In this document: positions 25,108-47,847 of the stretch, in pieces
How positions within the stretch are numbered: the first letter of the stretch is position 1
Layout: each line of letters opens with the position of its first letter
Assembly (NCBI GenBank): GCA_964369145.1
Contig: CAYJEE010000002.1
Location: 1-56,730 of the forward strand
DNA from: an uncultured Candidatus Saccharibacteria bacterium
Lineage (GTDB): Bacteria; Patescibacteriota; Minisyncoccia; Phycocordibacterales; DATDWN01
Reading direction: 5' to 3'
Length of the DNA stretch: 56,730 bases
Position numbers and translations under genes: made by a program
The notes under the pieces: generated by a model
The model's input: only the letters and a program-made list of their open reading frames with translations
Databases searched by the model: none
Told to the model about the DNA's origin: nothing

Positions 25108-25440
25108 ATGGTCACTAATGATAATGAAGATGAAGTAAGAGACCCTTTAGAAGTTATGGACGAAGCCGATGGTGATGATGGAGAAATTGACCCAGATAAG
25201 CTTGGTCCAGGTCTTCATATCGAAGGTGAGGATGAGGAGGTGGAAGTAGAGGCAGATGTAGATGGTATTGCGGTTACTGATATTGACGACCCACTTATGT
25301 TTGACCCACTTCTTGAAGACAAAAAACCTAAGAAAGAGAAGGTTCCTGGAGAGGAAGATGAGGAGGAATTTCCAGAAGACGAAGAAGATCCTGAGGTAGA
25401 GCTTGAAGATGAGGAATTTACAGACAAGGAAGAGTGGTAA
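25108..25440 (+). CDS. extremely acidic small protein (110 aa)
   Basis: By my count 50 of 110 residues are D/E and only 8 are K/R. No TM helix or signal peptide. No SD. Confidence 0.5.
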   Translation: MVTNDNEDEVRDPLEVMDEADGDDGEIDPDKLGPGLHIEGEDEEVEVEADVDGIAVTDIDDPLMFDPLLEDKKPKKEKVPGEEDEEEFPEDEEDPEVELEDEEFTDKEEW

Positions 25441-30492: not shown

Positions 30493-30593
30493 AGTTGTAT
30501 TTTACCTTTTAAAAGAATCTTATTACTATTAGGGGTGTGTATAAGGGGAAAACTTATATAATGGCTTATATAAAGGTTATTTTGAAAAAATAC

Positions 30594-30737
30594 TGTGGAA
30601 AACTGTGGGAAAACTGTGTATATCTTTGTGGATTATTGATGTTCTCTTTTTCTTATCCTTTTTTATCCACATAAATCACTACACTTTTCCTTTGTTATAC
30701 CCCTTTATATACAGAGTAATCCACAGGCTTATCCACA
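30594..30737. promoter_or_regulatory. oriC DnaA-box cluster
   Basis: Boxes in reverse orientation: tgtggaaaa (30594), tgtgggaaa (30604), tgtggatta (30627). Boxes in forward orientation: ttatccaca (30663, perfect), taatccaca (30717), ttatccaca (30729, perfect). An AT-rich stretch at 30493-30590 is adjacent. Confidence 0.8.
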
Positions 30738-32238: not shown

Positions 32239-32403
32239 ATGTCTCAAACATACCAACCTAAAAAACGAAAACGAGCAAAGAAACACGGCTTTCTTTCCCG
32301 AACAAAAACAGCAGGAGGAAAGAAGACTCTTCTCCGACGACGACGAAAAGGACGAGTTGCATTGTCTACTGTTAAACAGAAAGTATCAATCAAAAAGAAA
32401 TAA
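32239..32403 (+). CDS. rpmH: 50S ribosomal protein L34
   Basis: Below the ORF-track size cut-off. Hand translation: [54 protein letters not shown]. Confidence 0.9.
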
Positions 32404-32795: not shown

Positions 32796-33524
32796 ATGAT
32801 TTCAACATTTTTCAAAGCAGTTTTTTATCAACCTCTCTATAATGGTTTGATTTATCTTATGGATATACTCCCCTTTTTTGATGCGGGGGTTATTGTGATT
32901 CTTTTTACAATCATTGTAAAACTGATTATGTTCCCTCTCTCTATTAAAGCGACAAAAGCTCAGATTGAGATGAAAGATATTGAAAAAGATCTTAAAAAAA
33001 TAAAAGAACAGTATCCAGATAAACAAGTACAAACTCAAAAAACTATCGAGCTCTACAAAGAAAAAAACATAAACCCATTTGCAGGCTTTTTTGTATTGTT
33101 GCTTCAGTTGCCTATTATTATTGCGTTATATCAAATATTCTTAAAATCAGGTCTACCTGTTATCAATCTTGAGTTGTTGTATTCTTTTGTGTCTGCACCA
33201 CTCTCGATTAATATGAGTTTTCTAGGTTTGATAGATATTGCGGGTAAAAGTATTATGCTTGCGGTTATTGCAGGTATATCGACATATTTCCAGATCGCAT
33301 ACGCTACACCGCCGGTAGATAAAAACACAGATCCAAACAGTAAACCAACAATGCAAGAGGATGTGATGAAAATGATGCAAACTCAAATGAAATACGGATT
33401 TCCAATACTTGTTACATTTATCTCTTGGTCAGTTTCAGCAGCAGTCTCGATCTACTGGATTACAAGTAATATATTTACTATTGGACAGGAATTATATATA
33501 CGGAAACATATACGGAAAAGCTAA
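32796..33524 (+). CDS. yidC: membrane protein insertase YidC/Oxa1 (short, monoderm type)
   Basis: 242 aa, five TM helices. KLIMFPLSIKATKAQ, INPFAGFFVLLLQLPI. Confidence 0.85.
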   Translation: MISTFFKAVFYQPLYNGLIYLMDILPFFDAGVIVILFTIIVKLIMFPLSIKATKAQIEMKDIEKDLKKIKEQYPDKQVQTQKTIELYKEKNINPFAGFFVLLLQLPIIIALYQIFLKSGLPVINLELLYSFVSAPLSINMSFLGLIDIAGKSIMLAVIAGISTYFQIAYATPPVDKNTDPNSKPTMQEDVMKMMQTQMKYGFPILVTFISWSVSAAVSIYWITSNIFTIGQELYIRKHIRKS

Positions 33525-33526
33525 TT

Positions 33527-33556
33527 AAAAAAACCGCTCCAATGAGCGGTTTTTTT
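33527..33556. terminator. bidirectional terminator
   Basis: aaaaaaaccgctc-caat-gagcggttttttt. Confidence 0.8.
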
Positions 33557-34757
33557 AATTAATCGTAACAGTCCAAAGACTGTCGTCGGTTTTGCTTTGG
33601 ATAAGGAGTAGGGTGTCAGTTTGGTTGATAGAGATAGTTGAAACATCAATAGTTCGTCCTGCACGATCTTCGAGATCTACAAGTTTTCGTGCGGTGTTTG
33701 CTACTACATCATATTCCCAGATAGAGTCAGAGAAAGAAATTTCTCCTCTATACCAGGCATACAACGATCCAGAGCCGAGGGTGCTTTCAGGTACCGCACA
33801 ATATAGGAATAGTTTTGTATTACCCCAGACACATTTTTCAGGGTAGGTGTATGGAGAAAGTTCTGTAGAAGTGTTGGTTGTGGTATTAAGGTTAAACAAT
33901 GCAATATTGTTTGAATATGCTACATGAGGTTGTTTTTGGTTGGGTAATGTAGTCAAGTTTAACTGATTTGATATAAGTACGGTTTCGTTTGCATTTTGAG
34001 TATTAATATCAAAAAACAATCCATACGCAGACATGTGTGGTTTACTCTGAAGCCCGATATGGGTTGCAGAAATAAACTGAGGGACAAATTCCCGTAAAGG
34101 AGAATCCCAAATAAGTTTCTTTTTTGTACCATCAGGAAGTGATATATATCCTTCGCTTCCACGAGAAGTCTTTTCTAGTGTAAAGATATTCTGAGTATTT
34201 GGAGAGACAGTAAATGAAGTGATTGAGCGAGAAAGGAGAGTCCCTGTCACAGTTTTTTCTGTATCAGATCCAGTGATTTTTCCGTACAGAGTTTCGGTGC
34301 TATCATCGTTTTTAATGTATTGAGCAATAAAACCAGCCCCATTTTCGGTGAACAATGCGGTATGAATTTGAGGAATAGTTGTGTTTGATATTCGAGTATT
34401 TGTATTCTCAAATGTAGGTACATCAAAAATATGACCTGTCGCTTTTTCAATATAGCGAACAATATCCCCTCTTTGGTTTTTAATAAATATACTACCAGCA
34501 ACTGGTTCATCTGAAATAAGACGAACAGTTTGTTCAAAGTTTTGCACCACCTGGTCAGGTGTGATCGAAGGAGTGCTTGTGGCAAAGGGTGTCTCAGTAA
34601 CTACCTCGTTGTTTCCAAAAGGAAAAAGGTTTCCAAAAAACGGTTTTTTACCCCCTTCCACGTTTTCATTGGTAGAAAGTATAAAATAGTACCCTAAAAG
34701 CGCGACTGCGAGAGCGATCAGGATATACGCACTGATTTTGAGGATTTTTTTTGTCAT
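33555..34757 (-). CDS. N-terminally anchored extracytoplasmic protein, beta-propeller-like; last gene of the T4SS-like locus
   Basis: 400 aa. TM anchor ISAYILIALAVALLGYYFIL, and a repetitive beta-rich sequence. No assignable domain. Confidence 0.6.
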   Translation of the reverse strand: MTKKILKISAYILIALAVALLGYYFILSTNENVEGGKKPFFGNLFPFGNNEVVTETPFATSTPSITPDQVVQNFEQTVRLISDEPVAGSIFIKNQRGDIVRYIEKATGHIFDVPTFENTNTRISNTTIPQIHTALFTENGAGFIAQYIKNDDSTETLYGKITGSDTEKTVTGTLLSRSITSFTVSPNTQNIFTLEKTSRGSEGYISLPDGTKKKLIWDSPLREFVPQFISATHIGLQSKPHMSAYGLFFDINTQNANETVLISNQLNLTTLPNQKQPHVAYSNNIALFNLNTTTNTSTELSPYTYPEKCVWGNTKLFLYCAVPESTLGSGSLYAWYRGEISFSDSIWEYDVVANTARKLVDLEDRAGRTIDVSTISINQTDTLLLIQSKTDDSLWTVTIN

Positions 34758-34759
34758 AC

Positions 34760-35764
34760 TTAATTATATTTTAAGGTGTTGTAGATTGAGAAATGAGGCG
34801 CTGTAATACACCCTCCTGGCACATAACCACTTCGTGGACAAGTTGGTAGGTATAGCGCATAGCTTTCACTAATCCCAGCTGCGCGTAACTGAGCCTTTAC
34901 TTGATTTACAGCTTCACGGTTATTGCTTTCAAACACTGCGCCTGCATTAGATTTTCTCGCATCTACAATCATTTTCACCGCATTGCTTGGGGTCATAGCT
35001 ACATTTCGTAGGACTGCATCCACACAAGTTCCGTTTTTATGACAACCATCACCATGGGTTCTTGTCGGAGGCCATGCTTCTGTTACCGAAAGGGGGCTTC
35101 CTTGATTAATCTGTACCAGCTGATTGCCAAACGAAGTTGTTACCGATGATCCTGTTGTACCACTTCCGCTTAAACTCACCCCATTTAAATCTGCAACTTT
35201 TACACAACCGGTGGCTGTCCCATCACCACAATCATTATAATACACACCGTTTCTATTGTATTTTCCTTTAGTCTGATCGTTTACAACGGTGGCTCCAGGT
35301 AGAGCACCGTTACCTGTTGTGTTTACCACAGGTGCAGTTATTTTTGGAGTTGTAATTTCTAAGGAAAGATTTTCAACCAAAGCAGGATTGATTGTGTACA
35401 TAATTGCATATGCAGAAATAATCAAAATAAGACCCTGGAGTATTTCCCATATTTTTCCTTTATGTTCCATTTTTACCGAAGCACTGTCGGAGAAAGCATA
35501 TTGAAAGCCATAAAACGCAAGCATAAGCATTGCGATAATAGCACCTATGCCGATAACCAGTCCGAGAAACCCAGAAAGGTATGAGTTGATATCAGAACAA
35601 TCTTTACCTGCATTGGTTCCGGTACAATTAACTGTTGTTCCAGGAAGTGGTGCAAGGACGACATACTCCCCTATCACAGGTTCTGTTGCTTGAGCATGAA
35701 CATATGCGGCAGGGATGCTAAGTGTTGTGAAGATATAAAAGAGCGCAAAAATGTATCGTTTCAT
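34760..35764 (-). CDS. VirB2/TrbC-type pilin-like N-terminus fused to a putative zinc M15-type peptidoglycan peptidase domain
   Basis: Signal peptide (..AAYVHA), LAPLPG, two TM helices separated by about 18 aa (pilin topology). C-terminal domain has H-KNG-TCVD (fits S-x-H-x-x-G-x-A-x-D apart from C for A) and the late APHFS His. Confidence 0.55.
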   Translation of the reverse strand: MKRYIFALFYIFTTLSIPAAYVHAQATEPVIGEYVVLAPLPGTTVNCTGTNAGKDCSDINSYLSGFLGLVIGIGAIIAMLMLAFYGFQYAFSDSASVKMEHKGKIWEILQGLILIISAYAIMYTINPALVENLSLEITTPKITAPVVNTTGNGALPGATVVNDQTKGKYNRNGVYYNDCGDGTATGCVKVADLNGVSLSGSGTTGSSVTTSFGNQLVQINQGSPLSVTEAWPPTRTHGDGCHKNGTCVDAVLRNVAMTPSNAVKMIVDARKSNAGAVFESNNREAVNQVKAQLRAAGISESYALYLPTCPRSGYVPGGCITAPHFSIYNTLKYN

Positions 35765-35765
35765 A

Positions 35766-36779
35766 TTATTGGTTTTGTAAAAAATCTATTGAAAGGTTGT
35801 AAGAAGTAAACTGAAGTAGTTTATTTTTTTGGAGTACTTTTAAGGCAATATTTGAAACACCAAACACTTCCCCCACTTTTCGAAACACTCGAGTGCGTAC
35901 GTTTTGTCCATCAGAAATAGTGTTTCCGTTGATAGACCAGTTGTAGGAAATACTTCCAGATCCACCTTCTGCATTACTAAAGTAATACGGTACAGCAGTA
36001 AGAGTTACTTCTTTACCACCTAAAGGTAATGTGCCTTTTATTGCTTTGTTATACTGTACTCCATAGAGAGGGTCGACAACATAAGTGATTACCTCAGGTT
36101 CAATTGGAGTTATATTAATCGTATCAAAAGCAGTGGTACCAGTGTCGGGATCGCTCACCTCGAGGTCAATTGAGAGTGGGCGAGAAATAATTGATCCAGT
36201 GATTGGTAAAGTATAACGACCATACCCATTTTGATCACCAAGTACCGTACCATTTTTACTCCATGTATATATAAGGTTTTCTTTAGGAATTTCTTTTCCA
36301 TTCACCACAATACGAGGGGTGGCAACAAATAATATGTTGCTTTGATGTGAAAATAGAGCTTTGCCTTTAAAAAAATGAGGTGTGTATGTCCGTGCTTCCC
36401 ATAGAATACTCACTGATGCAGGTACGATACTAATATTTTTTGTAAATGTTTCTGTTTTTGTATCTACAACAACGCGCACAGAGGTTTCTGTCCCAAGCTT
36501 ACCTGTTTGAGTGGATATATTTTTTACCCCCGTACCTTTACGTACTTCCGTATTGTTTACATACCAAGTTATTTGGGCGGCATCAAGGTTAAGTGAATAG
36601 GATTCAATGGTGATTTGTACCGGTTGATTTGGTCGCGGACTTGCAGGTAAGAGTCCTATAGAAATATCACTTGATTCATTAAATTGGGCAAAAACTGAGG
36701 TTGTGGTAAAAAATATACCAAATATGAACAGGAGTGCGATAGAGTTAAATAGAGAAATTTTTAGAAAACGAGATATCAT
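35766..36779 (-). CDS. secreted protein with three Ig-like repeats
   Basis: Signal peptide. A repeated motif occurs three times: ITWYVNNTEV, YTWSKNGTVL, YNWSINGNTI. Confidence 0.6.
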   Translation of the reverse strand: MISRFLKISLFNSIALLFIFGIFFTTTSVFAQFNESSDISIGLLPASPRPNQPVQITIESYSLNLDAAQITWYVNNTEVRKGTGVKNISTQTGKLGTETSVRVVVDTKTETFTKNISIVPASVSILWEARTYTPHFFKGKALFSHQSNILFVATPRIVVNGKEIPKENLIYTWSKNGTVLGDQNGYGRYTLPITGSIISRPLSIDLEVSDPDTGTTAFDTINITPIEPEVITYVVDPLYGVQYNKAIKGTLPLGGKEVTLTAVPYYFSNAEGGSGSISYNWSINGNTISDGQNVRTRVFRKVGEVFGVSNIALKVLQKNKLLQFTSYNLSIDFLQNQ

Positions 36780-36833
36780 ATTAAACCTATTTTATCACAG
36801 ACTACATAGAAAACAGGTGGGGGTTGTTAACAG

Positions 36834-37406
36834 TTAAGCAGCTTTCTTTTGATTTTGAATCCGTTGAGTATTTTTTTCTCTCATATAGAGTACGTTTCCT
36901 CTGTTTGCAGATTGGGCACTTAAGCCAACTTTTGCAGTGTCAGTTGTGGTTGTACGGGTAGTATTAGTTGCTGTAATGTTTGAGTTAACTGCCATGCTTA
37001 TAACTTTTCCACCAGGTACTTTTTCGGCAACTTCTGCAATTTTAGTTGTTGAAATGGTGTACCAAACTGCGAAAGTCCAAGTTGGAATTATATTTAACAC
37101 AGGGATAAGTTCAATAAGCCACCCTCCCCCTATTGCCACAAGACGCTTAGGTGATGAAAAACTAACATCGTGTGTTTTGAACCATACATAAAAAGTTAAT
37201 CCAGCAAATACAGCAATAAAACTGTTAGCTATAGCTCCAATTACAAAAAAAATAAGGATTGCCTGAAGTGCGTCAAAAAAAAGTGCAGTAATAGTCATCA
37301 TAACTATTGTACTTTTCGGCAAAGAACTTTGTGGTTTTTCCTGAACTTCTTCTTTCTTGTCAGGATTCCATCTATTTTGCGCACGGATTTGTTCGAGTTC
37401 GTCCAT
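36834..37406 (-). CDS. polytopic membrane protein (about 4 TM), T4SS-locus associated
   Basis: 190 aa. Cytoplasmic N-terminus, four hydrophobic helices, T/N-rich tail. Confidence 0.55.
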   Translation of the reverse strand: MDELEQIRAQNRWNPDKKEEVQEKPQSSLPKSTIVMMTITALFFDALQAILIFFVIGAIANSFIAVFAGLTFYVWFKTHDVSFSSPKRLVAIGGGWLIELIPVLNIIPTWTFAVWYTISTTKIAEVAEKVPGGKVISMAVNSNITATNTTRTTTTDTAKVGLSAQSANRGNVLYMREKNTQRIQNQKKAA

Positions 37407-37426
37407 AATATCTCATATTATACAAC

Positions 37427-39232
37427 CTATTGTGACAATAAGTCAGACTTTGCCTTTTTAATAGCAAGAATTTGAGATGGATCAGATGTAATAATTTGAT
37501 CTTCAGTGTATGAAGCAATAATCTTGATCGCTACATGTTTGAGACCTGCAAAGAAGATACCCTCCCCTACATCTGATTCGAGAAGAAGATATTTTTCTTC
37601 ATCAGTCAGGTTGAACGTCTGCTGGAGTTTATCCATTGAAGTTGGAGATTGTTTGAGGAGGATTTGGATAGAAGAGTTAGTAATAATCGGCATTCCGTAT
37701 GGAGATTTCAAAAAGTCATCCACGTCTTGAGTGATAGTGGCAAGTCCGAGGAAGTATTTTCGTCCTCGTTTTGCAAGTGAAAGGAGGAATGAGGCGGTGT
37801 CTTCTGACTTCATCATCCACCACGCCTCATCGATTACAAGCAGGCGTTTCTTGAGCTCTTTTCGAATAGCTGCCCAGATATAATGCATAATAATATACAT
37901 TGCAATCGGCTTGAGCTCGTCTTCCATATCGCGCACTGAGAATACGATAAACTTTTTATTGATATCGATATTGGTCGGTCGGTTGATAAATCCTGCCCAG
38001 GTACCTTTAGTATATTTTGTGAGGCGTTGTGCGAGAGACTCCCCTCCTTCCATACCAGAAAGCACCATCTCAAAATCAGAAAGAAGCGGAGGTTCAATGT
38101 TTTTAAAATCAGAGTCAGCAGTAATGTCTTTCAGTGCGTATGTTTCTGTGATGGCTCGGTCGACAATCGCGTCTTCTTCAGGAGTGAGTCCACCAAGCAT
38201 AATGCGGAAAAGCCCTACGAGGTTGATAATGTTGCTTCGAAGTACACTCGCGCCCGACTCATCTTCGCCAGGTATTGGAAGGTCAAATGGGTTTATATGG
38301 TGCTCAGAGTTTAATGATATTTTAAAATATCTTCCACCCACCGCTTCGGCCATGTATTCATATTCATTTTCAGGGTCGATCACCATCACTGATGTATCAA
38401 ACATAAGTGTTCGGAGGATTTCGAGTTTTGTTGCATATGATTTACCTGAACCAGATTTTGCAAAGGTAATCGAGTTGTAGTTCTCAAGAGAAAAGCGGTC
38501 AAAGAGCACAAGAGATGAGTTGTGGCGGTTGATACCATACAAAATTCCTTTGTCAGAGGTGAGGTCAAAAGAAATAAATGGGAAAAGGCTTGAGAGTGGA
38601 GAGGAGTTGAGTTTGCTGTGTATTTCAAGCTGGTCTGTGCCAAGAGGAAGCACGGTTTTAAATGCTTGTTCTTGTTGAAAGAGGGCTGGTTTTACATATA
38701 CCAGTTTTGCTTCGAGGATTGATTTGATCTCAGACTCCATTTTATCAAGCTCTGCTTCAGAGTCTCCATACATGGTGATATAAAGACCTACATTAAAGAG
38801 TTTTTCTTGTGCTTGCTGGAGTTGGTCTCGGAGATTTTCAAGATCTTGGTATGCAGTATCAAGCATCGGGTTTCGTACTTGCCCCCTCGCCTCTCGAGCC
38901 ATGATCTGGCTTTGTACCTCAGCAACCTTTTTCTGGAATGTACGGAGAACGTCGGAAGTTTCAATTGGGTGTACAAAAATAGAAATATCAAACACTTTGT
39001 CGAGGTTGATGATTGGTGAAAACCAATTTTCTCCAAGGAATCGAGGGTATGAGATAACAAAAAAACTTCGAAGCACTTTTTCTCCAAGGTTGATCTCTTT
39101 TGGTGAAATCTTCAAAGCACTTGGAGCAATAATATCTTGTAGCTCAAGAGTACCCGCCTCATATATTTCCTGAGGAATGATGGAAGAGATCGAAGGTTCT
39201 TCTTTTTTTTGTAAAAAATCAAATATTCCCAT
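37427..39232 (-). CDS. virB4: VirB4/TrbE/TraC-family type IV secretion ATPase
   Basis: 601 aa. Walker A FAKSGSGKSYA, Walker B RLLVIDEAWWMM (the DEAW signature), C-terminal RKYFLGLATITQ motif, and a Gram-positive-type N-domain. Confidence 0.85.
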   Translation of the reverse strand: MGIFDFLQKKEEPSISSIIPQEIYEAGTLELQDIIAPSALKISPKEINLGEKVLRSFFVISYPRFLGENWFSPIINLDKVFDISIFVHPIETSDVLRTFQKKVAEVQSQIMAREARGQVRNPMLDTAYQDLENLRDQLQQAQEKLFNVGLYITMYGDSEAELDKMESEIKSILEAKLVYVKPALFQQEQAFKTVLPLGTDQLEIHSKLNSSPLSSLFPFISFDLTSDKGILYGINRHNSSLVLFDRFSLENYNSITFAKSGSGKSYATKLEILRTLMFDTSVMVIDPENEYEYMAEAVGGRYFKISLNSEHHINPFDLPIPGEDESGASVLRSNIINLVGLFRIMLGGLTPEEDAIVDRAITETYALKDITADSDFKNIEPPLLSDFEMVLSGMEGGESLAQRLTKYTKGTWAGFINRPTNIDINKKFIVFSVRDMEDELKPIAMYIIMHYIWAAIRKELKKRLLVIDEAWWMMKSEDTASFLLSLAKRGRKYFLGLATITQDVDDFLKSPYGMPIITNSSIQILLKQSPTSMDKLQQTFNLTDEEKYLLLESDVGEGIFFAGLKHVAIKIIASYTEDQIITSDPSQILAIKKAKSDLLSQ

Positions 39233-39237
39233 GATGT

Positions 39238-39876
39238 TTAACTAATTTGTATCGGCTTCTCTGTTTCTCCAGGATTGAAGATTTTATAGAATAATTCTAC
39301 CACCTCTTCTGTACCGAGGTGTGCGACTCGAATCCCACAACGCACGAGCCCTTGCTCGACGATCGCCATGCGTTGTTCGAGTTGGGTTCTGTTTTCTTCA
39401 AAATTCTCCATACGTTTTTTTATGTCCGCATCATTATCTTTTTTTCCAAAAAGACTGCTCGGATTAATACCTTTTCCTTGGATGAGTGCGGGTGTATATG
39501 GCACCACCACAAAGAAACTTTTGGTCATAATGTTGGTAGACTCAGTAAAATTTTTAATAAACTCAATGTATTCCTGAGTTTGTATTTTCATCAAGTCATT
39601 CATTTGCTCTTTGTAGCGTCCCTCAAGAAGTGCGATGTACGGCCGTATATCGAGTTTTCGTGATTGGATAAAAATCTGAAGTGGAAAATCAAGGGAGTTG
39701 AGAAAATCTTGGAACTGATACAAAATACCTTTGCGCTCATCTTCGGATTTGAGAGAAAAGTTTAAAGAAGATGCGAGAAGCACTGCTCGCATAGAGTTGT
39801 CTTTCAGAAGTACTACCCCATCACGTACTTCTTTAATAGGAACAAAATCTTGAGTTGCTTTAGACGGAATAGCCAT
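39238..39876 (-). CDS. hypothetical protein resembling a stand-alone VirB4 N-terminal domain
   Basis: The ORF opens at 39972, but MAIPSKATQDF at 39876 follows the upstream stop. The pattern VPIKEVRDGVVLLKDNSMRAVLLASSLNFSLKSEDE...LQIFIQSRKLDI parallels the N-domain of the adjacent VirB4 (LRSFFVISYPRF...ISIFVHPIETSD). Confidence 0.5.
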   Translation of the reverse strand: MAIPSKATQDFVPIKEVRDGVVLLKDNSMRAVLLASSLNFSLKSEDERKGILYQFQDFLNSLDFPLQIFIQSRKLDIRPYIALLEGRYKEQMNDLMKIQTQEYIEFIKNFTESTNIMTKSFFVVVPYTPALIQGKGINPSSLFGKKDNDADIKKRMENFEENRTQLEQRMAIVEQGLVRCGIRVAHLGTEEVVELFYKIFNPGETEKPIQIS

Positions 39877-39902
39877 AGAACAATTGTAACATACAATTAA
39901 TT

Positions 39903-40340
39903 TTAAATTTGAAATTTGTTCCCCTCTTCTCGTGTGACTGGGTTTTGGTTTTCTTTTATATCCAAACTCCATGTAAGCTCCTTGAGCTTACTATCTGAAA
40001 GTTTTGGTACATACATTTGTGCAGGTGCTTGTTTCTCGGCGCTTTTTGGTGTGACTGTTCGTTCTCTTTTTTTCCATATGTACAGTTTTTCTCCGAGGTA
40101 GTATTGAACACCTGCTTCAAGAAGGTCAATAAAAGGCTTGTTGTTGTAACGAAAAAAGGCAAGGGCTCCTCCGAGTGTGGCGATACCCGCGATAGCCATA
40201 ATCGCAAAAATAAGGGGTAGAAAACGATATGCTATCATCGACATACCCGCCGCTCCTGCTAGGTATAAGAATTGTTTCAAGGTTAAAGGACCAACGATTT
40301 TGTCTTCTATTTCAATAAATTGTGGTACTTGGAATCTCAT
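39903..40340 (-). CDS. PrgI-family (VirB3-like) membrane protein
   Basis: MRFQVPQFIEIEDKIVGPLTLKQFLYLAG followed by two TM helices. This is the signature I associate with PrgI-family proteins of monoderm T4SSs. Confidence 0.7.
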   Translation of the reverse strand: MRFQVPQFIEIEDKIVGPLTLKQFLYLAGAAGMSMIAYRFLPLIFAIMAIAGIATLGGALAFFRYNNKPFIDLLEAGVQYYLGEKLYIWKKRERTVTPKSAEKQAPAQMYVPKLSDSKLKELTWSLDIKENQNPVTREEGNKFQI

Positions 40341-40384
40341 GGTGTTGTGACTATAAGGGCTTTCGACTTGATAGGCTGCATAGA

Positions 40385-41059
40385 CTATTCAATCGGTTCT
40401 CGATATGGATCAACTGAGTATGTCTTCGGTGTGTCTACTGGTGGAGTGGATAGTGTGCTTGGTTGTGTTAGTTTTTGGGTGATAAATGAGCGAGGACTTT
40501 GAGGAACAAATGGTTGCTCCATAGGTGGTGTGAAGGTTGATTGTTGAGGAACAGGTGTTTCTTGGGGTGTCAGGTTTTCTTGTTGTGTTGGTTGAGCAAA
40601 AAAGTCTTTTACCTCATCTCGTAACAAGGTTGCTGTCGGTGTGGTTGAGACGACTACAGGCACCTTCTCTTTTATAAACTCCTCGATTATCTCACCGGGG
40701 AGGTTTGGAGGAGGAATATCGAGAGTGTTTTCTTTTATTTCTGGGGTTTGTTTTTGTTCGATTTTTTTCATTGCCCAAGCGAATATTCTTTCTTCAATTT
40801 CTTCTACGATTTGCTCAGCGAGAATACTTGAAATATCAAGCTCTTCTTCTATTGTTTCATTGAGTAAATCTGGTGATTGTAGATTGAGAAATGTAAATAA
40901 TATTTCGTAACCCAAGCTATCAATTTGTTCTACAGTGAGAGAATATTTTTGCCCAATTTCTTGCACTCTTTTGAGCCACTCCGAAGAACCGATAATGCTT
41001 TTTACATCATCTGAAAGAGTTTTATACGCATCTTTAATTATTTGTTCTTCGTTTTCCAT
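40385..41059 (-). CDS. hypothetical cytoplasmic protein, acidic N-half and P/Q/T-rich C-half
   Basis: The ORF opens at 41131, but MENEEQII at 41059 follows the upstream stop at 41064. Confidence 0.5.
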   Translation of the reverse strand: MENEEQIIKDAYKTLSDDVKSIIGSSEWLKRVQEIGQKYSLTVEQIDSLGYEILFTFLNLQSPDLLNETIEEELDISSILAEQIVEEIEERIFAWAMKKIEQKQTPEIKENTLDIPPPNLPGEIIEEFIKEKVPVVVSTTPTATLLRDEVKDFFAQPTQQENLTPQETPVPQQSTFTPPMEQPFVPQSPRSFITQKLTQPSTLSTPPVDTPKTYSVDPYREPIE

Positions 41060-41063
41060 GTTT

Positions 41064-43415
41064 TTATGGTGTTGGTGGTGTGGCTGGTGGCGTTGCGGGA
41101 GCTGCCGCAGATGCCGCATCATCTGCTGCATTATCAGCTTCTTCTTTTGCTATCGCTTTCAATTCTTCTTCCACAGATTTCTTTTTCTTTAAGCCTTTTT
41201 TGTATGCACGCGCACGGTCCTTATTAAATTCAGGAACACTCTCATTAAAGTACATCCATGGCATCCAAGCACTCTTTTGACTACCCACTCTCTCTGCAAT
41301 TGCTTTAGCACGTATATCTGATTGAGGAAGAACCTCACGAGTTTTAACCTGGCCTTGAAGATATTTATTTTCTTTACCGTATTTTTTCTCATCCTGGCCA
41401 CCTTTAATCGCAATAAGTTTTTCTTGTACTCCTGATATCCATGACTCATATCCTGCTTCCTGCCATTTTTCAAAGTTCTCTCCCAAATCCTTCGTTGCTT
41501 TGTCATATGCACCTGTTTTTTGTTTGACCACATTTTTGGTGTTTATAATCTTAGCTTCAATATCAGTAATAGGTTTACGTTGCTCATCAATCTGAGCCCG
41601 TATTGCTTCACGCGCAGCGTCATCAGTGGCTGCTGTAAGCTGTCTCTGAAGATTCATGTATGCAGTAGATTGTTCAATTGTATTTGTAATTGATGTGAGT
41701 TCTGTCTGGGCAGCAGTAAGAGCTGTTTCAGCTTTAGCTTTTTCACTAACTGCAGTATTAAGAGCTTTTTGACGTTTTGCCCTTTCATCAGCAACCTCTT
41801 TAACACGCTCTGCGCTCGCAAAGTAATCATCTCTTTCTTTCTTCTCTTGTGCTTTAAATGCGTCACTTTTAAGAGTTTCTTCAGCTTTAGCTACAGCTCG
41901 ATCAGATGGTTTGATAAGTTCCAAAAGCTCTTTATCCTCCTTCTTCTTTTCTTTTAGATAACTATCGTACCCACCCTTAATACCTTTACCTGCCCCAGCT
42001 TTAGAAAGTTGGTCGCCAAGCATGCTTGCATTACGAAAATCAAAAGAAGAGTCTGCAGTAGTTTTTGCGCCCTGTAAGGTCCATTTTGCAAACTTACCTG
42101 TGATACCACCTTTCTCTACTCTCTCTCGTAGCATGTCGCTATCAGCGACCGCGCGGCCAAGTCGTCCAAAAGTTTGTGTACCTGCTCGTGCTGCTCCTCC
42201 AAAGACTGCCCCACCAAGATACCCTGTGCCTTTGTCGATAAGTTTTGAACCCACCATTCCTCCTTTTGTTGCAATACTTTTTGAAAGGATAATGCTAGTA
42301 ATCAAAAGTCCGATTATGAGTATGTAGTTAATAATAAGACTAATTGAACTTCCATCTGGTCGTGACAATGCATCTCCGAGAGTTCCTGTTACTGTTGATT
42401 TTAGAAAATTACCATCCCCTGCAAGACTCAGAGTGACCCATGTGAGAAGCATGTACACAGGGGCAAAAAGCGCCTGACTCATAAGGGTCTGCGAGTATTT
42501 CTTTTTTAGATCATCAAGTCCTGGTACTGCCATTGCTATAAAAAAGAAAGGTGACATGATAAGTAGAATAATGAAGGATAGGTAGCGAATAAGAAACATA
42601 AGACCTACTGCCAAAAAGACAAAGGCGGCTATAAGCATAAAAAGTGTGTTTCCGATAAATACAGTAGCTCCTTGAGATCCTGAAAGGGCAATAGTGGCAA
42701 TATTTGTAGGATTGTACAGACTTGAAAGACGTAATGCTTTCATAAATGATCCGGTCAGACCAAAATTTGTTTCATAACCAGCAATCTTTGTAGTGCCTGA
42801 TGATACGATGGACTTATAGAATCCAAGTGTGACCACATTTGATGCGTCAATGATAACTTTTGTGAAAAAAAGGCTGAAGTTTACCAACACTGCAGCTATA
42901 ATAATGCTTGAGACAACTTTTTTTATTCCAGCACCACCCAGTCCGAGTACCATACGGATACCTTCGTAGAGTAATATAAAAATAAAAGCCATGTTTCCGA
43001 GATCTCGAATCACTTTCCATGTATTATTGATTGCCACAATATCCTTTAAATTTTGAGCTAATTCAACTACACTTAGTTTGATTATGTAATCTAAAATGAG
43101 ACCACTAAAGGCTAAAAAGGCTGCTGCAACACCCATTAAAACCACAAAGACAGGAATAAGAAAAGTGGATACTACTCCCCCTGCAATATCAACAGCGGTA
43201 CTTATGACTTTTCCTGTGGTAGGCTGGCTTGCTTTAATTCTTGCTATATCTTCAGGTGTTCCATATTGTGCTAAACAATCCTCATAAACTCCCCCATTTG
43301 ACATACAGCCAGCAAATGCGTCATTTTGCCCTTGAACAGGAACAGGAATCACACTTAAGGTAATAAGTGTGATAAATCCAAGTGATACTAATATTTTTTG
43401 TGCGACAGATTTCAT
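41064..43415 (-). CDS. VirB6/TrbL-like polytopic membrane protein with a long charged coiled-coil tail
   Basis: 783 aa. Signal peptide, at least six TM helices over residues ~80-400, then a ~300-aa K/E/A-rich helical tail ending in AAPATPPATPPTP. Confidence 0.6.
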   Translation of the reverse strand: MKSVAQKILVSLGFITLITLSVIPVPVQGQNDAFAGCMSNGGVYEDCLAQYGTPEDIARIKASQPTTGKVISTAVDIAGGVVSTFLIPVFVVLMGVAAAFLAFSGLILDYIIKLSVVELAQNLKDIVAINNTWKVIRDLGNMAFIFILLYEGIRMVLGLGGAGIKKVVSSIIIAAVLVNFSLFFTKVIIDASNVVTLGFYKSIVSSGTTKIAGYETNFGLTGSFMKALRLSSLYNPTNIATIALSGSQGATVFIGNTLFMLIAAFVFLAVGLMFLIRYLSFIILLIMSPFFFIAMAVPGLDDLKKKYSQTLMSQALFAPVYMLLTWVTLSLAGDGNFLKSTVTGTLGDALSRPDGSSISLIINYILIIGLLITSIILSKSIATKGGMVGSKLIDKGTGYLGGAVFGGAARAGTQTFGRLGRAVADSDMLRERVEKGGITGKFAKWTLQGAKTTADSSFDFRNASMLGDQLSKAGAGKGIKGGYDSYLKEKKKEDKELLELIKPSDRAVAKAEETLKSDAFKAQEKKERDDYFASAERVKEVADERAKRQKALNTAVSEKAKAETALTAAQTELTSITNTIEQSTAYMNLQRQLTAATDDAAREAIRAQIDEQRKPITDIEAKIINTKNVVKQKTGAYDKATKDLGENFEKWQEAGYESWISGVQEKLIAIKGGQDEKKYGKENKYLQGQVKTREVLPQSDIRAKAIAERVGSQKSAWMPWMYFNESVPEFNKDRARAYKKGLKKKKSVEEELKAIAKEEADNAADDAASAAAPATPPATPPTP

Positions 43416-43421
43416 TGTTGT

Positions 43422-44855
43422 TTAAGGTGTGGACTCAGAGCTTCCATCAAGAACCGTTCTTCCACATGCATCCGTTCCTGGAACACCATTCACTAATGTC
43501 ACAGTATTGTTGTTTTCTAAACAGTATCGCTGTCTATCTTGTTCGGCTCTAAATCGAACCTCTGCTTCTGATGGTGGTGTGTAAATTCCTGTAGGTTCTC
43601 CGCCAGTAAGAACAGATTGGAACTGAGCCGGTATCGTCGCCTCTATTCCCGCTCTTTCAGATTCGAAGCTTGATTGGGTTGACGATGCTTGAATTTGTTC
43701 CAATAAGGTACTTGATTTGCCTGCTTGTTTTTTACTTAATCCTCGAAGGCCACCCTGGACACTGTTGAGGGTTTGTTCAATCATCTGGGTCATCAAAGCA
43801 TTCACCACCTGATTGATTGAGTTTGTAAGCTCAAGTGTTGTTTCTGTACTGTTTAAAGATTTGGTGAGTTTTTCTGATATTACACTACCTGGAGTAACGG
43901 TTTGCTTTGCTACTGTACAGTCGGTAGCTAATATTCCACCAAGTTCTGAGCCTGCAGTGAGGTTTCCGTTATCATCTAAGAGTGAGGGGTCTATAACCTC
44001 GCAAGTAAAATTGCTACCACATCGTAGGCCGGCTCCACATACTGCACCACCTTCCAGTTCACACGCATCCCCTGCTCTGCCTACTATCTGACCTCTGTTT
44101 GCTGCCACTTCTGCTTTTGTTTTACCCTCAGGACACACCTCGAAAGACAAGAAACCTTTTCCTTGAGTGAGCTGTTTGTCGTATTTTGTATTTTGGACGT
44201 TAATTCGAGCGGAAAGTTGTCGAGAAGCATCAAAATATGCACCATATGGATTATTTTGACTTTCTTGGGTCATAGTAACCCATGCCTCCCACCCTCCTTG
44301 ACTAAAGTCGTTGGTGAAGTTTTCAAAATTAGCACCTATTCTGCTGAATGTACACTGAGATTGAAATTGGTCTTCCTGAAGATAGTTTTTTACCAATGCA
44401 AGTCTGACTTGTGGCTGGAAAGCTGTACAGAGCTGGTTGAGTGGAGAGTTTGCATTGAGAAAATACTGCGACGCTGTTCGGTCTCCAACATCTAAAAAGA
44501 ATTGTTCTGGGTCGGTCACGAATGCAGGGTTGCCTTGAAAGCCGGTGTTAATCCAATTGACAGTCTGTGCGGTGAGTTTACGGAGTATTGCTCGAGCGAA
44601 AGCGGTGGCAACAGTATCCAATACGAATGTTTTAAGGAAATTAGACACATCAGTCGATGCGCTCACGGTCGTCCCTGCCGCGGTTGTAACACCGGTGATT
44701 GCACTTATTGTGCTTTGAACCACGTTTGCAAAGTTCCACGTAGGCCAAGCGGCATCGGCCTTTTTTGCAGGTAGTGCAAAAAAGACAATAGGGAGGATGA
44801 TCAGGGTGATACAAATACTTGACAGAGCTTTTTTAGAGAAAAATGGTACGTTCAT
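43422..44855 (-). CDS. secreted hypothetical protein
   Basis: The ORF opens at 44966; MNVPFFSKKALSSICITLIILPIVFFALPAKKADA at 44855 is a signal peptide. Contains a Cys-rich insert (CELEGGAVCGAGLRCGSNFTCE). Confidence 0.55.
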   Translation of the reverse strand: MNVPFFSKKALSSICITLIILPIVFFALPAKKADAAWPTWNFANVVQSTISAITGVTTAAGTTVSASTDVSNFLKTFVLDTVATAFARAILRKLTAQTVNWINTGFQGNPAFVTDPEQFFLDVGDRTASQYFLNANSPLNQLCTAFQPQVRLALVKNYLQEDQFQSQCTFSRIGANFENFTNDFSQGGWEAWVTMTQESQNNPYGAYFDASRQLSARINVQNTKYDKQLTQGKGFLSFEVCPEGKTKAEVAANRGQIVGRAGDACELEGGAVCGAGLRCGSNFTCEVIDPSLLDDNGNLTAGSELGGILATDCTVAKQTVTPGSVISEKLTKSLNSTETTLELTNSINQVVNALMTQMIEQTLNSVQGGLRGLSKKQAGKSSTLLEQIQASSTQSSFESERAGIEATIPAQFQSVLTGGEPTGIYTPPSEAEVRFRAEQDRQRYCLENNNTVTLVNGVPGTDACGRTVLDGSSESTP

Positions 44856-44931
44856 AGAAATATATACTCTATTATATAAGATACAAGCATTATTTAATAG
44901 AACAAAAACAAATTTCTGTTGAAAAGTATTT

Positions 44932-45849
44932 TTAATTATTACTGAAATATTTTTGGATTCCTTCAAATCCGATTTTCAGCATAAGAGCATCTTTTTGAAA
45001 ATGCGCATACCCGATATATCCACGCATCGGGTCTTCTAAAACCAGTCTCATCTCAGATAGATCAGTATAAACTGAAGAAAGTGCATTAAGGTATATCATA
45101 TGCTCCGGAACAAGGTCTTTAGGTACAGGGATTTTAAGTATCTCAGTAAGGATATTTTTATACGCCTGTATAATAGGATCAAGTTTTTTAATGTCGGCAG
45201 GGTTTTGACTTTCAACCGCTTTCATCACTATTTGAAGCTCATTTTCCTTTGATTTTGGTGGATTTGCTTTCAATACCCGAATAAATGTCTCTATATAAAA
45301 AGTTTGAGACTCTAAAGTTTTTGGAACAATAGTGATATCTTTGAGTTGATATTGTTTAGCATTTGATTCAACGGGGATGTTTTGCATAACTAACTCCGCT
45401 ATTTCAAGTGCAGTTTCAGGTGTTACCTCTTGACCTCCTTTTTTTGCAAGTAAATATTGACCGAAAAAGTTTCGTGATACTTGGGCTGTAAGGGTGTTAT
45501 CCTCATTTTCTACCGAGTTTATCACCAGAGGGCTAATCTCCGTGCTTGCCTTATCGTTTGGTCCTACTTTTTTTGGATCTCTTCCTTGTTTTACTTCTTC
45601 TCCGTCAGTTGTACCATCTCCGTCAGTATCTACGTTTGTTGGATTTGTGCCAATCAGTCCCTCTTCCCAGTCTTTAAGGTCGTCCTTATCTGTATCTCCA
45701 GTCGAACTTTTATCAATCATGCTTAATATATCAGCAGTTTTTTTTGCGGTACTGTTTTTGGAAGTGGTTTGTATTTTTGATATTAGAAATACTGATGTAA
45801 TAACACCAATGCAGATAATAAGCGTTACTAACACTTTTTGATGTGCCAT
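44932..45849 (-). CDS. N-terminally anchored protein with acidic Ca-binding-like DxDxDG repeats; first gene of the minus-strand T4SS-like row
   Basis: TM anchor VLVTLIICIGVITSVFLI, then GDTDKDDLKDWEE...NVDTDGDGTTDGEE (thrombospondin type 3-like). Confidence 0.55.
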   Translation of the reverse strand: MAHQKVLVTLIICIGVITSVFLISKIQTTSKNSTAKKTADILSMIDKSSTGDTDKDDLKDWEEGLIGTNPTNVDTDGDGTTDGEEVKQGRDPKKVGPNDKASTEISPLVINSVENEDNTLTAQVSRNFFGQYLLAKKGGQEVTPETALEIAELVMQNIPVESNAKQYQLKDITIVPKTLESQTFYIETFIRVLKANPPKSKENELQIVMKAVESQNPADIKKLDPIIQAYKNILTEILKIPVPKDLVPEHMIYLNALSSVYTDLSEMRLVLEDPMRGYIGYAHFQKDALMLKIGFEGIQKYFSNN

Positions 45850-45933
45850 AGTGTTTTTAGTATATCATGACGTGATATACTAAAGGGTAATTATTATTGT
45901 TAATAACGAAGGGTGGTGTTGGTTTTTAAATAT

Positions 45934-47847
45934 ATGAAAAAGATATTTCAATATAGTGTCATGATGTTTATGTTTGCAGTGCCGTTTATTTCGCATGGAC
46001 AGACCACTTCAGGTACATGTACTGGTGAGATTCGTACTGATCTTGTTGCTGCTACAGATTGTATTAATAAAGCTACTGCACAAGGTCAATCACGTGGATA
46101 TACCATGAGTTGTACAGTAGAACAGCTTCCTCTTGGAGGGTTCACCGATCCTACTTCAGGTAAGGATTATATTCTTAACCCTGTCTGTACTGTAAATGGC
46201 TCTGAGGGTCACGGAGCGTATCTTCTTGCAGGATTTACTGCAGCTGCGGGGTCAAATGCTATTATTCAAAGTGTTAATCCTGGTTGGGATATTTTGAAAA
46301 CAGAGTTGGCATACGAAAGTGCATTTGCACAGTGTGGAGGAAAAGCACCGTATGGGTCTGTGGTAAATGGTGTGAGTGTTTATTCGTGTACTCCTCCACC
46401 TGGCGCGCTTCCTGTTCCTGCATCATCTGTTGGTTCGACAAAAGTTGGAACTGGAGACTCTTTATCTACAGAAGCGGCGGTTAAAGAAGTTCTCAAGTCA
46501 ATTTTTAGTGTTAATCAGGGTTTACTTCAGAATATCATGAATCGATATGGCGAATATTCACGGACAATGTTAAATCCAGGCACAACCACAGTTAACACTC
46601 CTGTATCTACAACACCCAACTCTCAATGCTACCAATTCACCAAAACTCTCCAGGTGGGTAGCTCAGGGCTTGAAGTGTATGCGCTTACGTATGCACTCAA
46701 ACACGAAGGTTTTCTTTCTCAAACAAGTAGCGTATTTGATACGACTACAATGACGGCTGTGAAAAGATTCCAAGAGGCGCATGCAACCGAAATATTAAAC
46801 ATTCTCGGGCTTACTCAAGGAACTGGAGTGATGGCTGAAAAAACTCGTGCATACTTGAATTCAACATGTATTGTACCCGCATCAATAAGTCTACCAACCA
46901 CGCCTACCACAACCTCATGTGCTGCTCCAACTCGAACAGGTATTAAAAATGGTGTATATCGATACACATTTACACAAAGAGGAGATAATTGGGTGGTGAC
47001 ATTAAATAATCCTGCATATCGGACACCTGGGGATCCATACTATGTTCCAGCAAACTTCTCATTTACTGCACCAAACGCACTTGATTTAAATAGACAAAAT
47101 CAAGGTAAATTTAACTATCTCCAGTCATTGCCAGGTACGGCAGAAGGAAATACAGAGTATGCAAACCTCTTTGGTTCATTCAACAACGCATATTATGACT
47201 GGAATGCACTTACTTCACCTCTTGGTGCGGGATGTGCCAATCCTACTGTAAATCCAAATCCTACATCTGGTATAACTGTTCCTACTTTAAACATACCTGC
47301 TACAGCTGTTCGGTATATTAAGATTTCTGTAGCAGACTGGGATACACTTCCGCTTGCATTGCGAGAGATTGTGGTGGTAAGTAAAAAAGGTACACTTGTA
47401 AAACCTGTAGCAGTAACTGCAACTAATTTTGATGCATTCAGTAATACAGTACCTGCAAACTTAATTGATGGTAATGAAAATAGTATTTGGAAAGCTACAA
47501 AAAGTATAGCGACGTGTTCAAACAGAGTGACTGCTGATCAGACTGCAGCGAGAGGTTCCGATGGTGCAATCCGGGCGCAGATTCAGTGTAGTGAAACAGA
47601 TGGTGATTTACAGGTTATCACTCTGGATCTCGGGCAGGCGATCGAGCTTGATCAAGTGAGAATTGTGAACTATGGATTTACAGATACACGAGTATTTGTG
47701 ATTGAGGTGGGTAGTGATGATCGTGCATACTCACAGATTGCAGAAGTCAGGGCTCGAACAACCGCGCCGATTGTAGATAAGGGTGTGGTATACGGAGTTA
47801 TGAAGTCAGCTTCTACTGTTGGTCCACTTCTCTACCCACTTCCGTAG
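45934..47847 (+). CDS. secreted protein with a peptidoglycan-binding (PG_binding_1-like) domain and a C-terminal discoidin/F5-8 type C-like domain
   Basis: ORF opens at 45913; MKKIFQYSVMMFMFAVPFISHG signal peptide at 45934. LQVGSSGLEVYALTYALKHEGF...TTTMTAVKRFQEAH. C-terminal YIKISVADWD...NLIDGNENSIWKA... Confidence 0.6.
   Translation: MKKIFQYSVMMFMFAVPFISHGQTTSGTCTGEIRTDLVAATDCINKATAQGQSRGYTMSCTVEQLPLGGFTDPTSGKDYILNPVCTVNGSEGHGAYLLAGFTAAAGSNAIIQSVNPGWDILKTELAYESAFAQCGGKAPYGSVVNGVSVYSCTPPPGALPVPASSVGSTKVGTGDSLSTEAAVKEVLKSIFSVNQGLLQNIMNRYGEYSRTMLNPGTTTVNTPVSTTPNSQCYQFTKTLQVGSSGLEVYALTYALKHEGFLSQTSSVFDTTTMTAVKRFQEAHATEILNILGLTQGTGVMAEKTRAYLNSTCIVPASISLPTTPTTTSCAAPTRTGIKNGVYRYTFTQRGDNWVVTLNNPAYRTPGDPYYVPANFSFTAPNALDLNRQNQGKFNYLQSLPGTAEGNTEYANLFGSFNNAYYDWNALTSPLGAGCANPTVNPNPTSGITVPTLNIPATAVRYIKISVADWDTLPLALREIVVVSKKGTLVKPVAVTATNFDAFSNTVPANLIDGNENSIWKATKSIATCSNRVTADQTAARGSDGAIRAQIQCSETDGDLQVITLDLGQAIELDQVRIVNYGFTDTRVFVIEVGSDDRAYSQIAEVRARTTAPIVDKGVVYGVMKSASTVGPLLYPLP

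Follow-up and report, generated by a model that had tools for sequence, protein, structure and literature searches.

Type IV secretion systems (T4SSs) of Patescibacteria have been described in recent years in one epibiont as well as in genome surveys. Southlakia epibionticum carries an essential T4SS (SEML1_0006-0019) that resembles Gram-positive conjugation systems and includes pilins, with no recognisable coupling or relaxase proteins (Wang et al. 2023, PMC10633639), and this T4SS is essential for epibiotic growth (PMC10633639, PMC12857230). A survey of 3,035 Patescibacteria genomes placed the VirB4 proteins in a monophyletic clade nested in MPF_FATA (Quinonero-Coronel et al. 2025, PMC12102498); genes for TrsD, PrgI/VirB3, VirB6, and VirB2-like proteins were found near virB4, relaxases were rare, and VirD4-like genes were mostly distant from virB4 (PMC12102498). 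In Paceibacteria, the locus was reported to lie close to dnaA, dnaN, rnpA, rpmH, and ksgA (PMC12102498). Tubular structures that "may be T4SS pili" have also been reported at a parasite-host interface (bioRxiv 10.64898/2026.06.21.733656). Here, we describe a T4SS-like locus at positions 33555-47847 of contig CAYJEE010000002.1, a stretch of 56,730 nt that is referred to as the window; the open reading frames (ORFs) of this locus are labelled O1 to O12.

We consider it likely that this locus encodes a fixed chromosomal machine which derives from monoderm conjugation machinery (MPF_FATA), is no longer part of a mobile element, and most likely acts in contact with a host and in macromolecule transfer. 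While the initial annotation left open whether the gene set had been described before, such Patescibacteria clusters were described between 2023 and 2025 (PMC10633639, PMC12102498), and the finding is thus largely a rediscovery. With the T4SSs of the Patescibacteria clade, the locus shares the clustering of a monoderm-type VirB4, TrsD, PrgI/VirB3, VirB6, and a VirB2-like pilin, the lack of a relaxase at the locus, and a position adjoining dnaA, dnaN, rnpA, rpmH, and ksgA. It differs from the Southlakia system in that a single pilin fused to a wall-peptidase-like domain is found here, as opposed to an array of six small pilins; in addition, essentiality has been shown in Saccharimonadia only, whereas the form described here is that of Paceibacteria. 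Furthermore, O1, O3, O4, O8, O10, and O11 are conserved genes here that are not named in PMC12102498 or PMC10633639. For comparisons with relatives, a VirB4 scan with one genome per species yielded 579 relatives, of which the best 80 (78-98% identical, the closest being CAYRRP01 at 98%; L003-L082) constitute the set of related genomes. The features of the locus are listed here in order of position.

Terminator, 33521-33562, bidirectional: intrinsic terminator hairpin; its 18-nt arms pair perfectly around a loop of 4 nt and are flanked by runs of A and T.
O1, 33555-34757, minus strand: closes the operon; TolB-like beta-propeller protein anchored at its N-terminus, with a transmembrane (TM) segment at residues 3-30.
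O2, 34760-35764, minus strand: VirB2/TrbC-type T4SS pilin hairpin (residues ~55-125) joined to a C-terminal Hedgehog-N/DD-peptidase (LAS)-like domain (residues ~205-334).
C-terminal domain of O2, 34763-35152, minus strand.
O3, 35766-36779, minus strand: protein with three Ig-like repeats (~100 aa each, motif Y-x-W-x-x-N-G; alignment A2), either secreted or anchored.
O4, 36834-37406, minus strand: small membrane protein; hydropathy indicates 3-4 TM segments, and Asp45 and Pro108 are conserved in alignment A10.
O5, 37427-39232, minus strand: monoderm-type (MPF_FATA-like) VirB4 ATPase; matches Pfam P-loop_TraG (E 1.7e-27) as well as AAA_10.
O6, 39238-39876, minus strand: TrsD-like protein, homologous to the N-terminal domain of VirB4 but encoded as a separate gene; matches the N-terminal region of NCBIfam VirB4_plasma (E 2.4e-12).
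O7, 39903-40340, minus strand: PrgI/VirB3-like membrane protein; Pfam PrgI (E 1.1e-9; 39.1 bits, cutoff 27).
O8, 40385-41059, minus strand: acidic cytoplasmic protein of 224 aa with an N-terminal helical domain, a Pro-rich linker, and a C-terminal DPYRE.
O9, 41064-43415, minus strand: polytopic membrane protein, VirB6/TrbL-like via its homologues, with a long hydrophilic coiled-coil C-terminal half ("extended VirB6").
O10, 43422-44855, minus strand: secreted protein of 477 aa with a conserved Cys-containing domain of ~200 aa that has no known relative.
O11, 44932-45849, minus strand: opens the operon; membrane-anchored at the N-terminus, with Ca-binding repeats of thrombospondin type 3 and a C-terminal domain of ~190 aa.
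O12, 45934-47847, plus strand: variable neighbour; secreted protein, divergently encoded, that combines a PG_binding_1 domain with a discoidin (F5/8-type-C) domain at the C-terminus.

All twelve ORFs of the initial annotation were found where they had been placed, with O1 to O11 running on the minus strand from 45849 to 33555 and O12 diverging on the plus strand. Three ORFs (O6, O8, and O10) had been over-extended at the 5' end by a "first start after stop" rule; the coordinates given above for these ORFs (212, 224, and 477 aa, respectively) are those obtained after correction from gene calls on two contigs with identical proteins as well as from orthologue lengths. After this correction, the gaps from O1 to O11 measure 2, 1, 54, 20, 5, 26, 44, 4, 6, and 76 nt, with no gene overlaps. 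Because these gaps span only 1-76 nt, in keeping with the 0-80 nt first reported, O1 to O11 form a single compact operon. Of the proposed twelve-gene locus, this eleven-gene minus-strand operon stands, while O12, for which matches were seen in only 9 of the 80 related genomes, is no core part. The adjacency of the locus to yidC likewise stands, with a gap of 30 nt (31 nt as first given); the terminator hairpin fills these 30 nt from the stop of yidC to that of the convergent O1 and is common to both genes. Identical copies of the locus were also seen in the Logan assemblies of ERR4405440 and ERR4405441.

Descent from monoderm conjugation machinery is indicated by profile hidden Markov model (HMM) searches, in which VirB4 and PrgI pass curated thresholds and the pilin and VirB6 calls hold through orthologues. 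O5 contains both the Walker A (AKSGSGKS) and the Walker B (LLVIDEAWWM) motifs that had been noted in it. Its best solved relative is the C-terminal domain of Thermoanaerobacter VirB4 (PDB 4AG5, E 1e-40), as compared to E 2e-8 for TrwK of R388, and the HMM of the VirB4 family matches PrgJ of pCF10 (3e-52), TrsE of pGO1 (9e-41), and Orf16 of Tn916 (4e-10); judged by search E-values, O5 is a VirB4 nearer to the monoderm (FATA) than to the diderm VirB4 proteins. O6, which lies between VirB4 and PrgI, had been counted among eight unassignable ORFs and is TrsD-like, so that this count no longer holds in full; further matches to CD1110 (E 6e-6), TrsD (E 3.4e-5), and, as precomputed, the TraC-like Pfam family PF26593 were found for this protein, and as O6 and the N-terminus of O5 did not match significantly by BLASTP, the TrsD call is one of curated profiles. 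In O7, the PrgI-like N-terminus (MRFQVPQFIEIEDK...) is present as first read, and the protein, which passes the Pfam cutoff, was detected in 76 of the 80 related genomes with a median identity of 54%. Hydropathy supports the topology proposed for O9, i.e., a signal peptide followed by ~6-8 TM segments. The VirB6/TrbL-like assignment of O9 is indirect: the window protein itself has no Pfam match and falls below curated thresholds, TrbL is matched by 6 of 59 O9 orthologues, and one homologue (P0236, E 4e-37 to O9) matches TrbL at E 7e-6 and 26.3 bits, over the cutoff of 25.9. Against the PDB, the O9 profile matched only coiled-coil proteins, at the C-terminal half.

That this machinery is chromosomally fixed is supported by its synteny across relatives. 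By tblastn of all window proteins, the order dnaN-dnaA-rnpA-yidC-O1-O2-O3-O4-VirB4-TrsD-PrgI-O8-O9-O10-O11-(O12)-ksgA-uvrD is kept in nearly all loci with enough flank among the best 80 of the 579 relatives, i.e., both gene order and position recur. Named members of these 80 relatives belong to the Parcubacteria group (Zambryskibacteria, Taylorbacteria, Nomurabacteria, and Paceibacterota), and the organism is a member of the Paceibacteria/Parcubacteria (Zambryskibacteria-like) and not of the Saccharibacteria. The label "uncultured Candidatus Saccharibacteria bacterium", which is carried by many third-party records of metagenome-assembled genomes with this Parcubacteria-type locus, looks default or mistaken.

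Median identities to the related genomes were 82% for VirB4, 67% for TrsD, 63% for DnaA, 54% for both PrgI and UvrD, 51% for DnaN, 49% for YidC, and 43% for KsgA, with 27-35% for the envelope proteins. VirB4 was more conserved than DnaA in 55/55 genomes, than DnaN in 53/53, than YidC in 60/60, and than KsgA in 47/47, a comparison that may be biased by the choice of loci on VirB4 similarity; we read this conservation as purifying selection on VirB4, with a constraint stronger than that on DnaA. In composition, the T4SS genes (GC 0.397; GC at third codon positions 0.307) equal the core genes (0.396 and 0.319, respectively). The leaderless start style is common to the locus and the core genes as well: a Shine-Dalgarno motif was found in 0/12 T4SS genes and 1/23 core genes (1/35 overall), and a TATAAT-like box 5-10 nt before the start codon is common in T4SS and core genes alike (e.g., upstream of 37406 for O4, 34757 for O1, 44855 for O10, and 32147 for dnaA), which suggests leaderless mRNAs as well as internal promoters within the operon.

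Genes that would point to mobility were sought in the window as well as in the loci of the 80 related genomes (1.42 Mb in total). A Pfam scan of ~42 window ORFs identified no VirD4, relaxase, VirB7/9/10, VirB11, or integrase, the sole VirB11-like match in the window being the type IV pilus ATPase PilB. By tblastn, five relaxase and four coupling protein (T4CP)/FtsK queries gave zero matches in these 1.42 Mb, and integrase queries found nothing there. No direct repeats of more than 18 nt were found at the borders, and no tRNA lies within 18 kb of the locus. The absences that the initial annotation listed (coupling protein, relaxase, VirB11, VirB7/9/10, integrase, and border repeats) thus stand for the window; the lack of a coupling protein holds for the 56.7-kb contig only and is not extendable to the genome, because surveys place VirD4-like genes elsewhere in most Patescibacteria genomes. 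Because gene order is conserved, composition is core-like, and relaxase, coupling ATPase, and integrase genes were not found in the window and the 1.42 Mb searched, the locus is a fixed chromosomal machine and not an integrated conjugative element, and the initial annotation, which had reasoned from position, composition, start style, and absences alike, was sound in this respect.

Compared to MPF_FATA systems (pGO1 trs, pCF10 prg/pcf), the locus shares the VirB4 match, the order VirB3-like-TrsD-VirB4 (pGO1), and a VirB6 of the TrbL family, but differs in that it has no VirD4, relaxase, topoisomerase, SSB, CHAP/SLT VirB1, or VirB8-like (PrgL/TraM) protein, lies off a mobile element, and encodes accessory proteins unrelated by sequence. 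In a search of pCF10, pGO1, and Tn916 proteins with the HMMs of the twelve families, only VirB4 matched robustly; weak matches in this Gram-positive reference search were PrgI/TrsC (~0.01) and TrsL (0.004). With Gram-negative VirB/D4 systems (MPF_T, R388 Trw), the locus has in common the VirB4 ATPase (TrwK, E 2e-8) and the VirB2, VirB3, and VirB6 concepts, but it has no VirB7/9/10 outer core, VirB11, VirB8, or VirB1. Ten family profiles (all except VirB4 and O12) gave nothing significant against the R388 Trw proteins, the family profiles did not match TrwH, TrwF, TrwE, or TrwD, and no profile except VirB4 matches R388. Assignments of O1, O3, O4, O8, O10, and O11 to PrgD/F/G/K/L, TrsF/G/H/J, or VirB5/8 were considered and left unsupported, as no significant profile matches were obtained. 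In pGO1 (L084), 25115-25432, just upstream of trsC-trsD-trsE, is annotated as a "CagC family type IV secretion system protein" (VirB2-like); because of this annotation, VirB2-like proteins may not be wholly absent from MPF_FATA.

The pilin of the locus, O2, has the VirB2/TrbC topology that was initially proposed for it, with agreement between hydropathy (signal peptide and helical hairpin), orthologue pilin matches, and the helical hairpin of an AlphaFold2 (AF2) model. The window protein matches the NCBIfam pilin-like family Mbov_0395 (E 1.3e-8), Pfam TrbC (E 5e-4), and T4SS_pilin (E 7e-3) over the same hairpin, all under the curated cutoffs, and Pfam T4SS_pilin is matched by 45 of 47 O2 orthologues. 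In the AF2 model (predicted local distance difference test [pLDDT] 82), the hairpin is accompanied by an alpha/beta domain, and the C-terminal domain reaches a pLDDT of 85-98. When a profile of 22 such C-terminal domains was searched against the PDB, 23 of 24 matches were Hedgehog N-terminal domains (best E 0.002). The Hedgehog N-terminal fold belongs to the LAS/DD-peptidase group (MEROPS M15-like). The profile pattern vTEa.pp..H...CH..GtCvDa aligns to the zinc site of Sonic hedgehog (Shh), including Glu, His, and H-x6-D, and the residues of alignment A7 that match this site (E20, H28, H33, and D40) are invariant or nearly so. The domain thus shares these residues with Hedgehog-N/LAS domains, but differs in having H-F-S in place of H-x-H as the second motif, two invariant Cys that flank a His, and a fusion to a T4SS pilin hairpin. 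The second His of H-x-H is the third zinc ligand in Shh and DD-peptidase. Among 146 relatives of the O2 domain, an H-F-S-type second motif occurs in 120 and H-x-H is kept in only 14; most representatives carry C-H-x2-G-x-C-x-D and finish in H-[FYW]-S.

The O2 C-terminal domain occurs in 262 protein clusters at 50% identity, and a pilin hairpin is fused to an O2-type domain in 125 of the 146 retrieved representatives, i.e., in at least 125 protein clusters. Other O2 orthologues bear Peptidase_M15_4, NlpC/P60, or glucosaminidase domains at the same position. Because this fusion is widespread and alternative hydrolase domains occupy the same position, equipping the pilin with a module of the wall-hydrolase type appears to be a general pattern, and it is plausible that this module substitutes for the missing VirB1. 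No claim of homology is made between the O2 domain of the window type and the "SxHxxGxxxD...HWH" type of other orthologues, for which hhalign gave a probability of 2%.

Among the remaining operon genes, the O1 orthologue profile matches twelve TolB entries (best E 0.004) and O1 is present in 63/80 related genomes, and the O3 profile matches the Ig-like domains of T4 Hoc (E 1.8e-4) with O3 present in 77/80. O11 matches Pfam TSP3_bac (E 3e-5), its orthologue profile matches the repeat region of Bap (E 4e-4), and it is present in 37/80; no family matched its C-terminal domain of ~190 aa. No Pfam or NCBIfam match was obtained for O4, and no family or PDB match for O8. In O8, residues D217-P-Y-R-E221 are invariant in 25/25 sequences (alignment A11), as compared to ~28% identity for the remainder of the protein, and this DPYRE tail could be a docking peptide or a secretion signal. 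O10 is a possible VirB5-like component: many O10 homologues match Pfam DUF4141 (E 5e-8, residues ~18-58) at the N-terminus only, and one homologue matches NCBIfam TrbJ (E 1.2e-4, residues 10-51), with no match for the window O10 itself. Discoidin domains are fused to O10 homologues in five genomes. O12 matches Pfam F5_F8_type_C (E 1.8e-6) and PG_binding_1 (E 1.9e-4), and searches of O12 against the PDB gave no match.

The position of the locus beside the origin of replication, as initially annotated, is supported by six DnaA boxes as well as by a GC skew that switches sign at ~29-31 kb, coinciding with the DnaA-box cluster; the distance from the operon end to this likely oriC is 2.8 kb. The flanking features on this side are as follows.

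DnaA-box cluster, likely oriC, 30536-30737, no strand: six TTATCCACA boxes in the interval from dnaN to dnaA, two of them perfect and four with one mismatch.
Left flank of the locus: dnaN at 29392-30492, dnaA at 30807-32147, and rpmH at 32239-32403, then rnpA and yidC.

The operon, to the right of oriC on the minus strand, is oriented head-on to the rightward fork, and its orientation relative to dnaA is the same in related loci. The right flank contains ksgA/rsmA, a UvrD/PcrA helicase, a LysM-M23 peptidase, and a ComM-like protein. The LysM-Peptidase_M23 protein (50904-52082) is encoded at a distance of 3-4 kb from the operon, with synteny in nine related loci; M23/LysM domains have been reported in some VirB1-like proteins by the 2025 survey (PMC12102498). 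The ComM/Mg-chelatase-like protein (52115-53671) adjoins the LysM-Peptidase_M23 gene. The remainder of the window consists of core genes (pilM/N, pilB, ruvABC, polA, PBP1, and tyrS, as well as three tRNAs far from the locus). The type IV pilus genes pilN, pilM, and pilB are thus on the same 57-kb contig (832-2346 and 19526-21745); the true start of pilB is probably further downstream, because the listed pilB ORF overlaps an opposite-strand ORF (19202-19915).

With regard to function, the most likely role of the locus in our analysis is contact with a host together with macromolecule transfer between the epibiont and that host, as opposed to conjugation. In the mechanism that we propose, a VirB4 hexamer that PrgI and TrsD keep at the membrane would energise a VirB6-based channel and would pull pilin-like O2 subunits from the membrane into a short pilus or stalk. 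Outside the cell, the C-terminal domain of O2 might bind or trim peptidoglycan, either the cell's own or that of the host, in place of the missing VirB1, while O10 (possibly VirB5-like), O1, O3, and O11 would form the extracellular part that touches the host cell. As to the direction of transport, import of host-derived material may tentatively be put forward, and is slightly favoured over effector export.

A number of points weigh against this reading. No VirB8-like protein was recognised in the operon, and both the contig-level scope of the coupling protein's absence and the possible bias of the comparison between VirB4 and DnaA have to be kept in mind. The assignments of O9 and of the O2 pilin are, for the window proteins themselves, below curated thresholds, and Foldseek searches of the whole two-domain O2 model against PDB and BFVD returned nothing at E <0.07, with helical-hairpin noise only. 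While the H-x6-D zinc motif of O2 is intact, O2 may not be an active peptidase because the second His of the LAS H-x-H motif is missing, and catalysis by this domain is uncertain. For O10, the VirB5-like reading draws on ~40 N-terminal residues in homologues only, the AF2 model is helical and of low confidence (pLDDT 65), Foldseek and a PDB profile search were without matches, and the O10 profile did not match TrwJ of R388.

Among alternative accounts of function, a dedicated nucleic-acid importer, similar to H. pylori ComB or archaeal Ced, that feeds host DNA or RNA to a nucleotide-auxotrophic epibiont would be a functional sub-case of the fixed machine proposed above, and appears possible albeit doubtful. 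This account fits the lack of a relaxase or coupling protein at the locus, the presence of a ComM-like gene and type IV pilus genes in the same window, and literature according to which Patescibacteria lack nucleotide synthesis, together with a 2026 preprint that reports RNA feeding with possible T4SS pili (bioRxiv 10.64898/2026.06.21.733656). On the other hand, deletion of comEC in Southlakia ends competence but not viability, while the T4SS is essential (PMC12857230), and DNA uptake for transformation is thus not the essential role of the T4SS; moreover, none of the operon's products was recognisable as a DNA-binding protein or a nuclease, and the direction of transport is not readable from sequence.

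A translocator that injects toxins or host-manipulating proteins into a host bacterium, similar to the systems of Xanthomonas or Legionella, is an account that we likewise regard as rather unlikely. Some effector T4SSs run without a T4CP (e.g., Ptl and the Brucella VirB system; PMC12102498), protein export was one option raised by Wang et al. 2023 (PMC10633639), and the adhesin-like O1, O3, and O11 as well as the discoidin domain of O12 would fit contact-dependent delivery; however, no candidate effector or immunity pair was found in or beside the operon, and O8, with its invariant DPYRE, is the only conceivable substrate or adaptor and carries no known signal type. Still less probable, in our view, is a more specific design, in which a pilus or stalk with an external Hedgehog/DD-peptidase-like domain (with a remodelled metal site) and a TrbJ/VirB5-like tip formed by O10 would act as a wall-binding or wall-cutting conduit through the host peptidoglycan, with the DPYRE of O8 as a docking signal for the VirB4/TrsD motor; if true, VirB2- and VirB5-type parts together with a pilin-enzyme fusion would be seen in a monoderm T4SS for the first time. 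Finally, that the locus is an integrated conjugative element or a recent remnant of one was rejected as highly improbable: while VirB4, TrsD, PrgI, and VirB6 descend from monoderm conjugation systems and the core order PrgI-TrsD-VirB4 is that of trsC-trsD-trsE in pGO1, dozens of species-level genomes show the locus at the same position and with the same gene order, the composition is native, the constraint on VirB4 exceeds that on DnaA, no integrase, relaxase, or T4CP was found in the window or related loci, and neither a tRNA target nor flanking repeats were found at the locus in the window.

A fixed chromosomal machine of monoderm conjugative origin, engaged in host contact and macromolecule passage, remains the reading that we prefer, and the locus represents no new class of T4SS; it provides a fully syntenic Paceibacteria reference with eleven defined parts. 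Not found in PMC10633639 or PMC12102498 are the fusion of a pilin to a Hedgehog/DD-peptidase-like domain, the TrbJ/DUF4141-like N-terminus of the O10 family, the TolB-like propeller, the Ig-repeat protein, and the stronger conservation of VirB4 as compared to DnaA. The features worth carrying on are the pilin-peptidase-like fusion, the family with the TrbJ-like N-terminus, the DPYRE protein, and a VirB4/TrsD motor that is more conserved than DnaA. How a quarter of bacterial diversity can live on other cells is likely to be explained by only a few machines, of which the T4SS of Patescibacteria, essential in the one species tested, is one.

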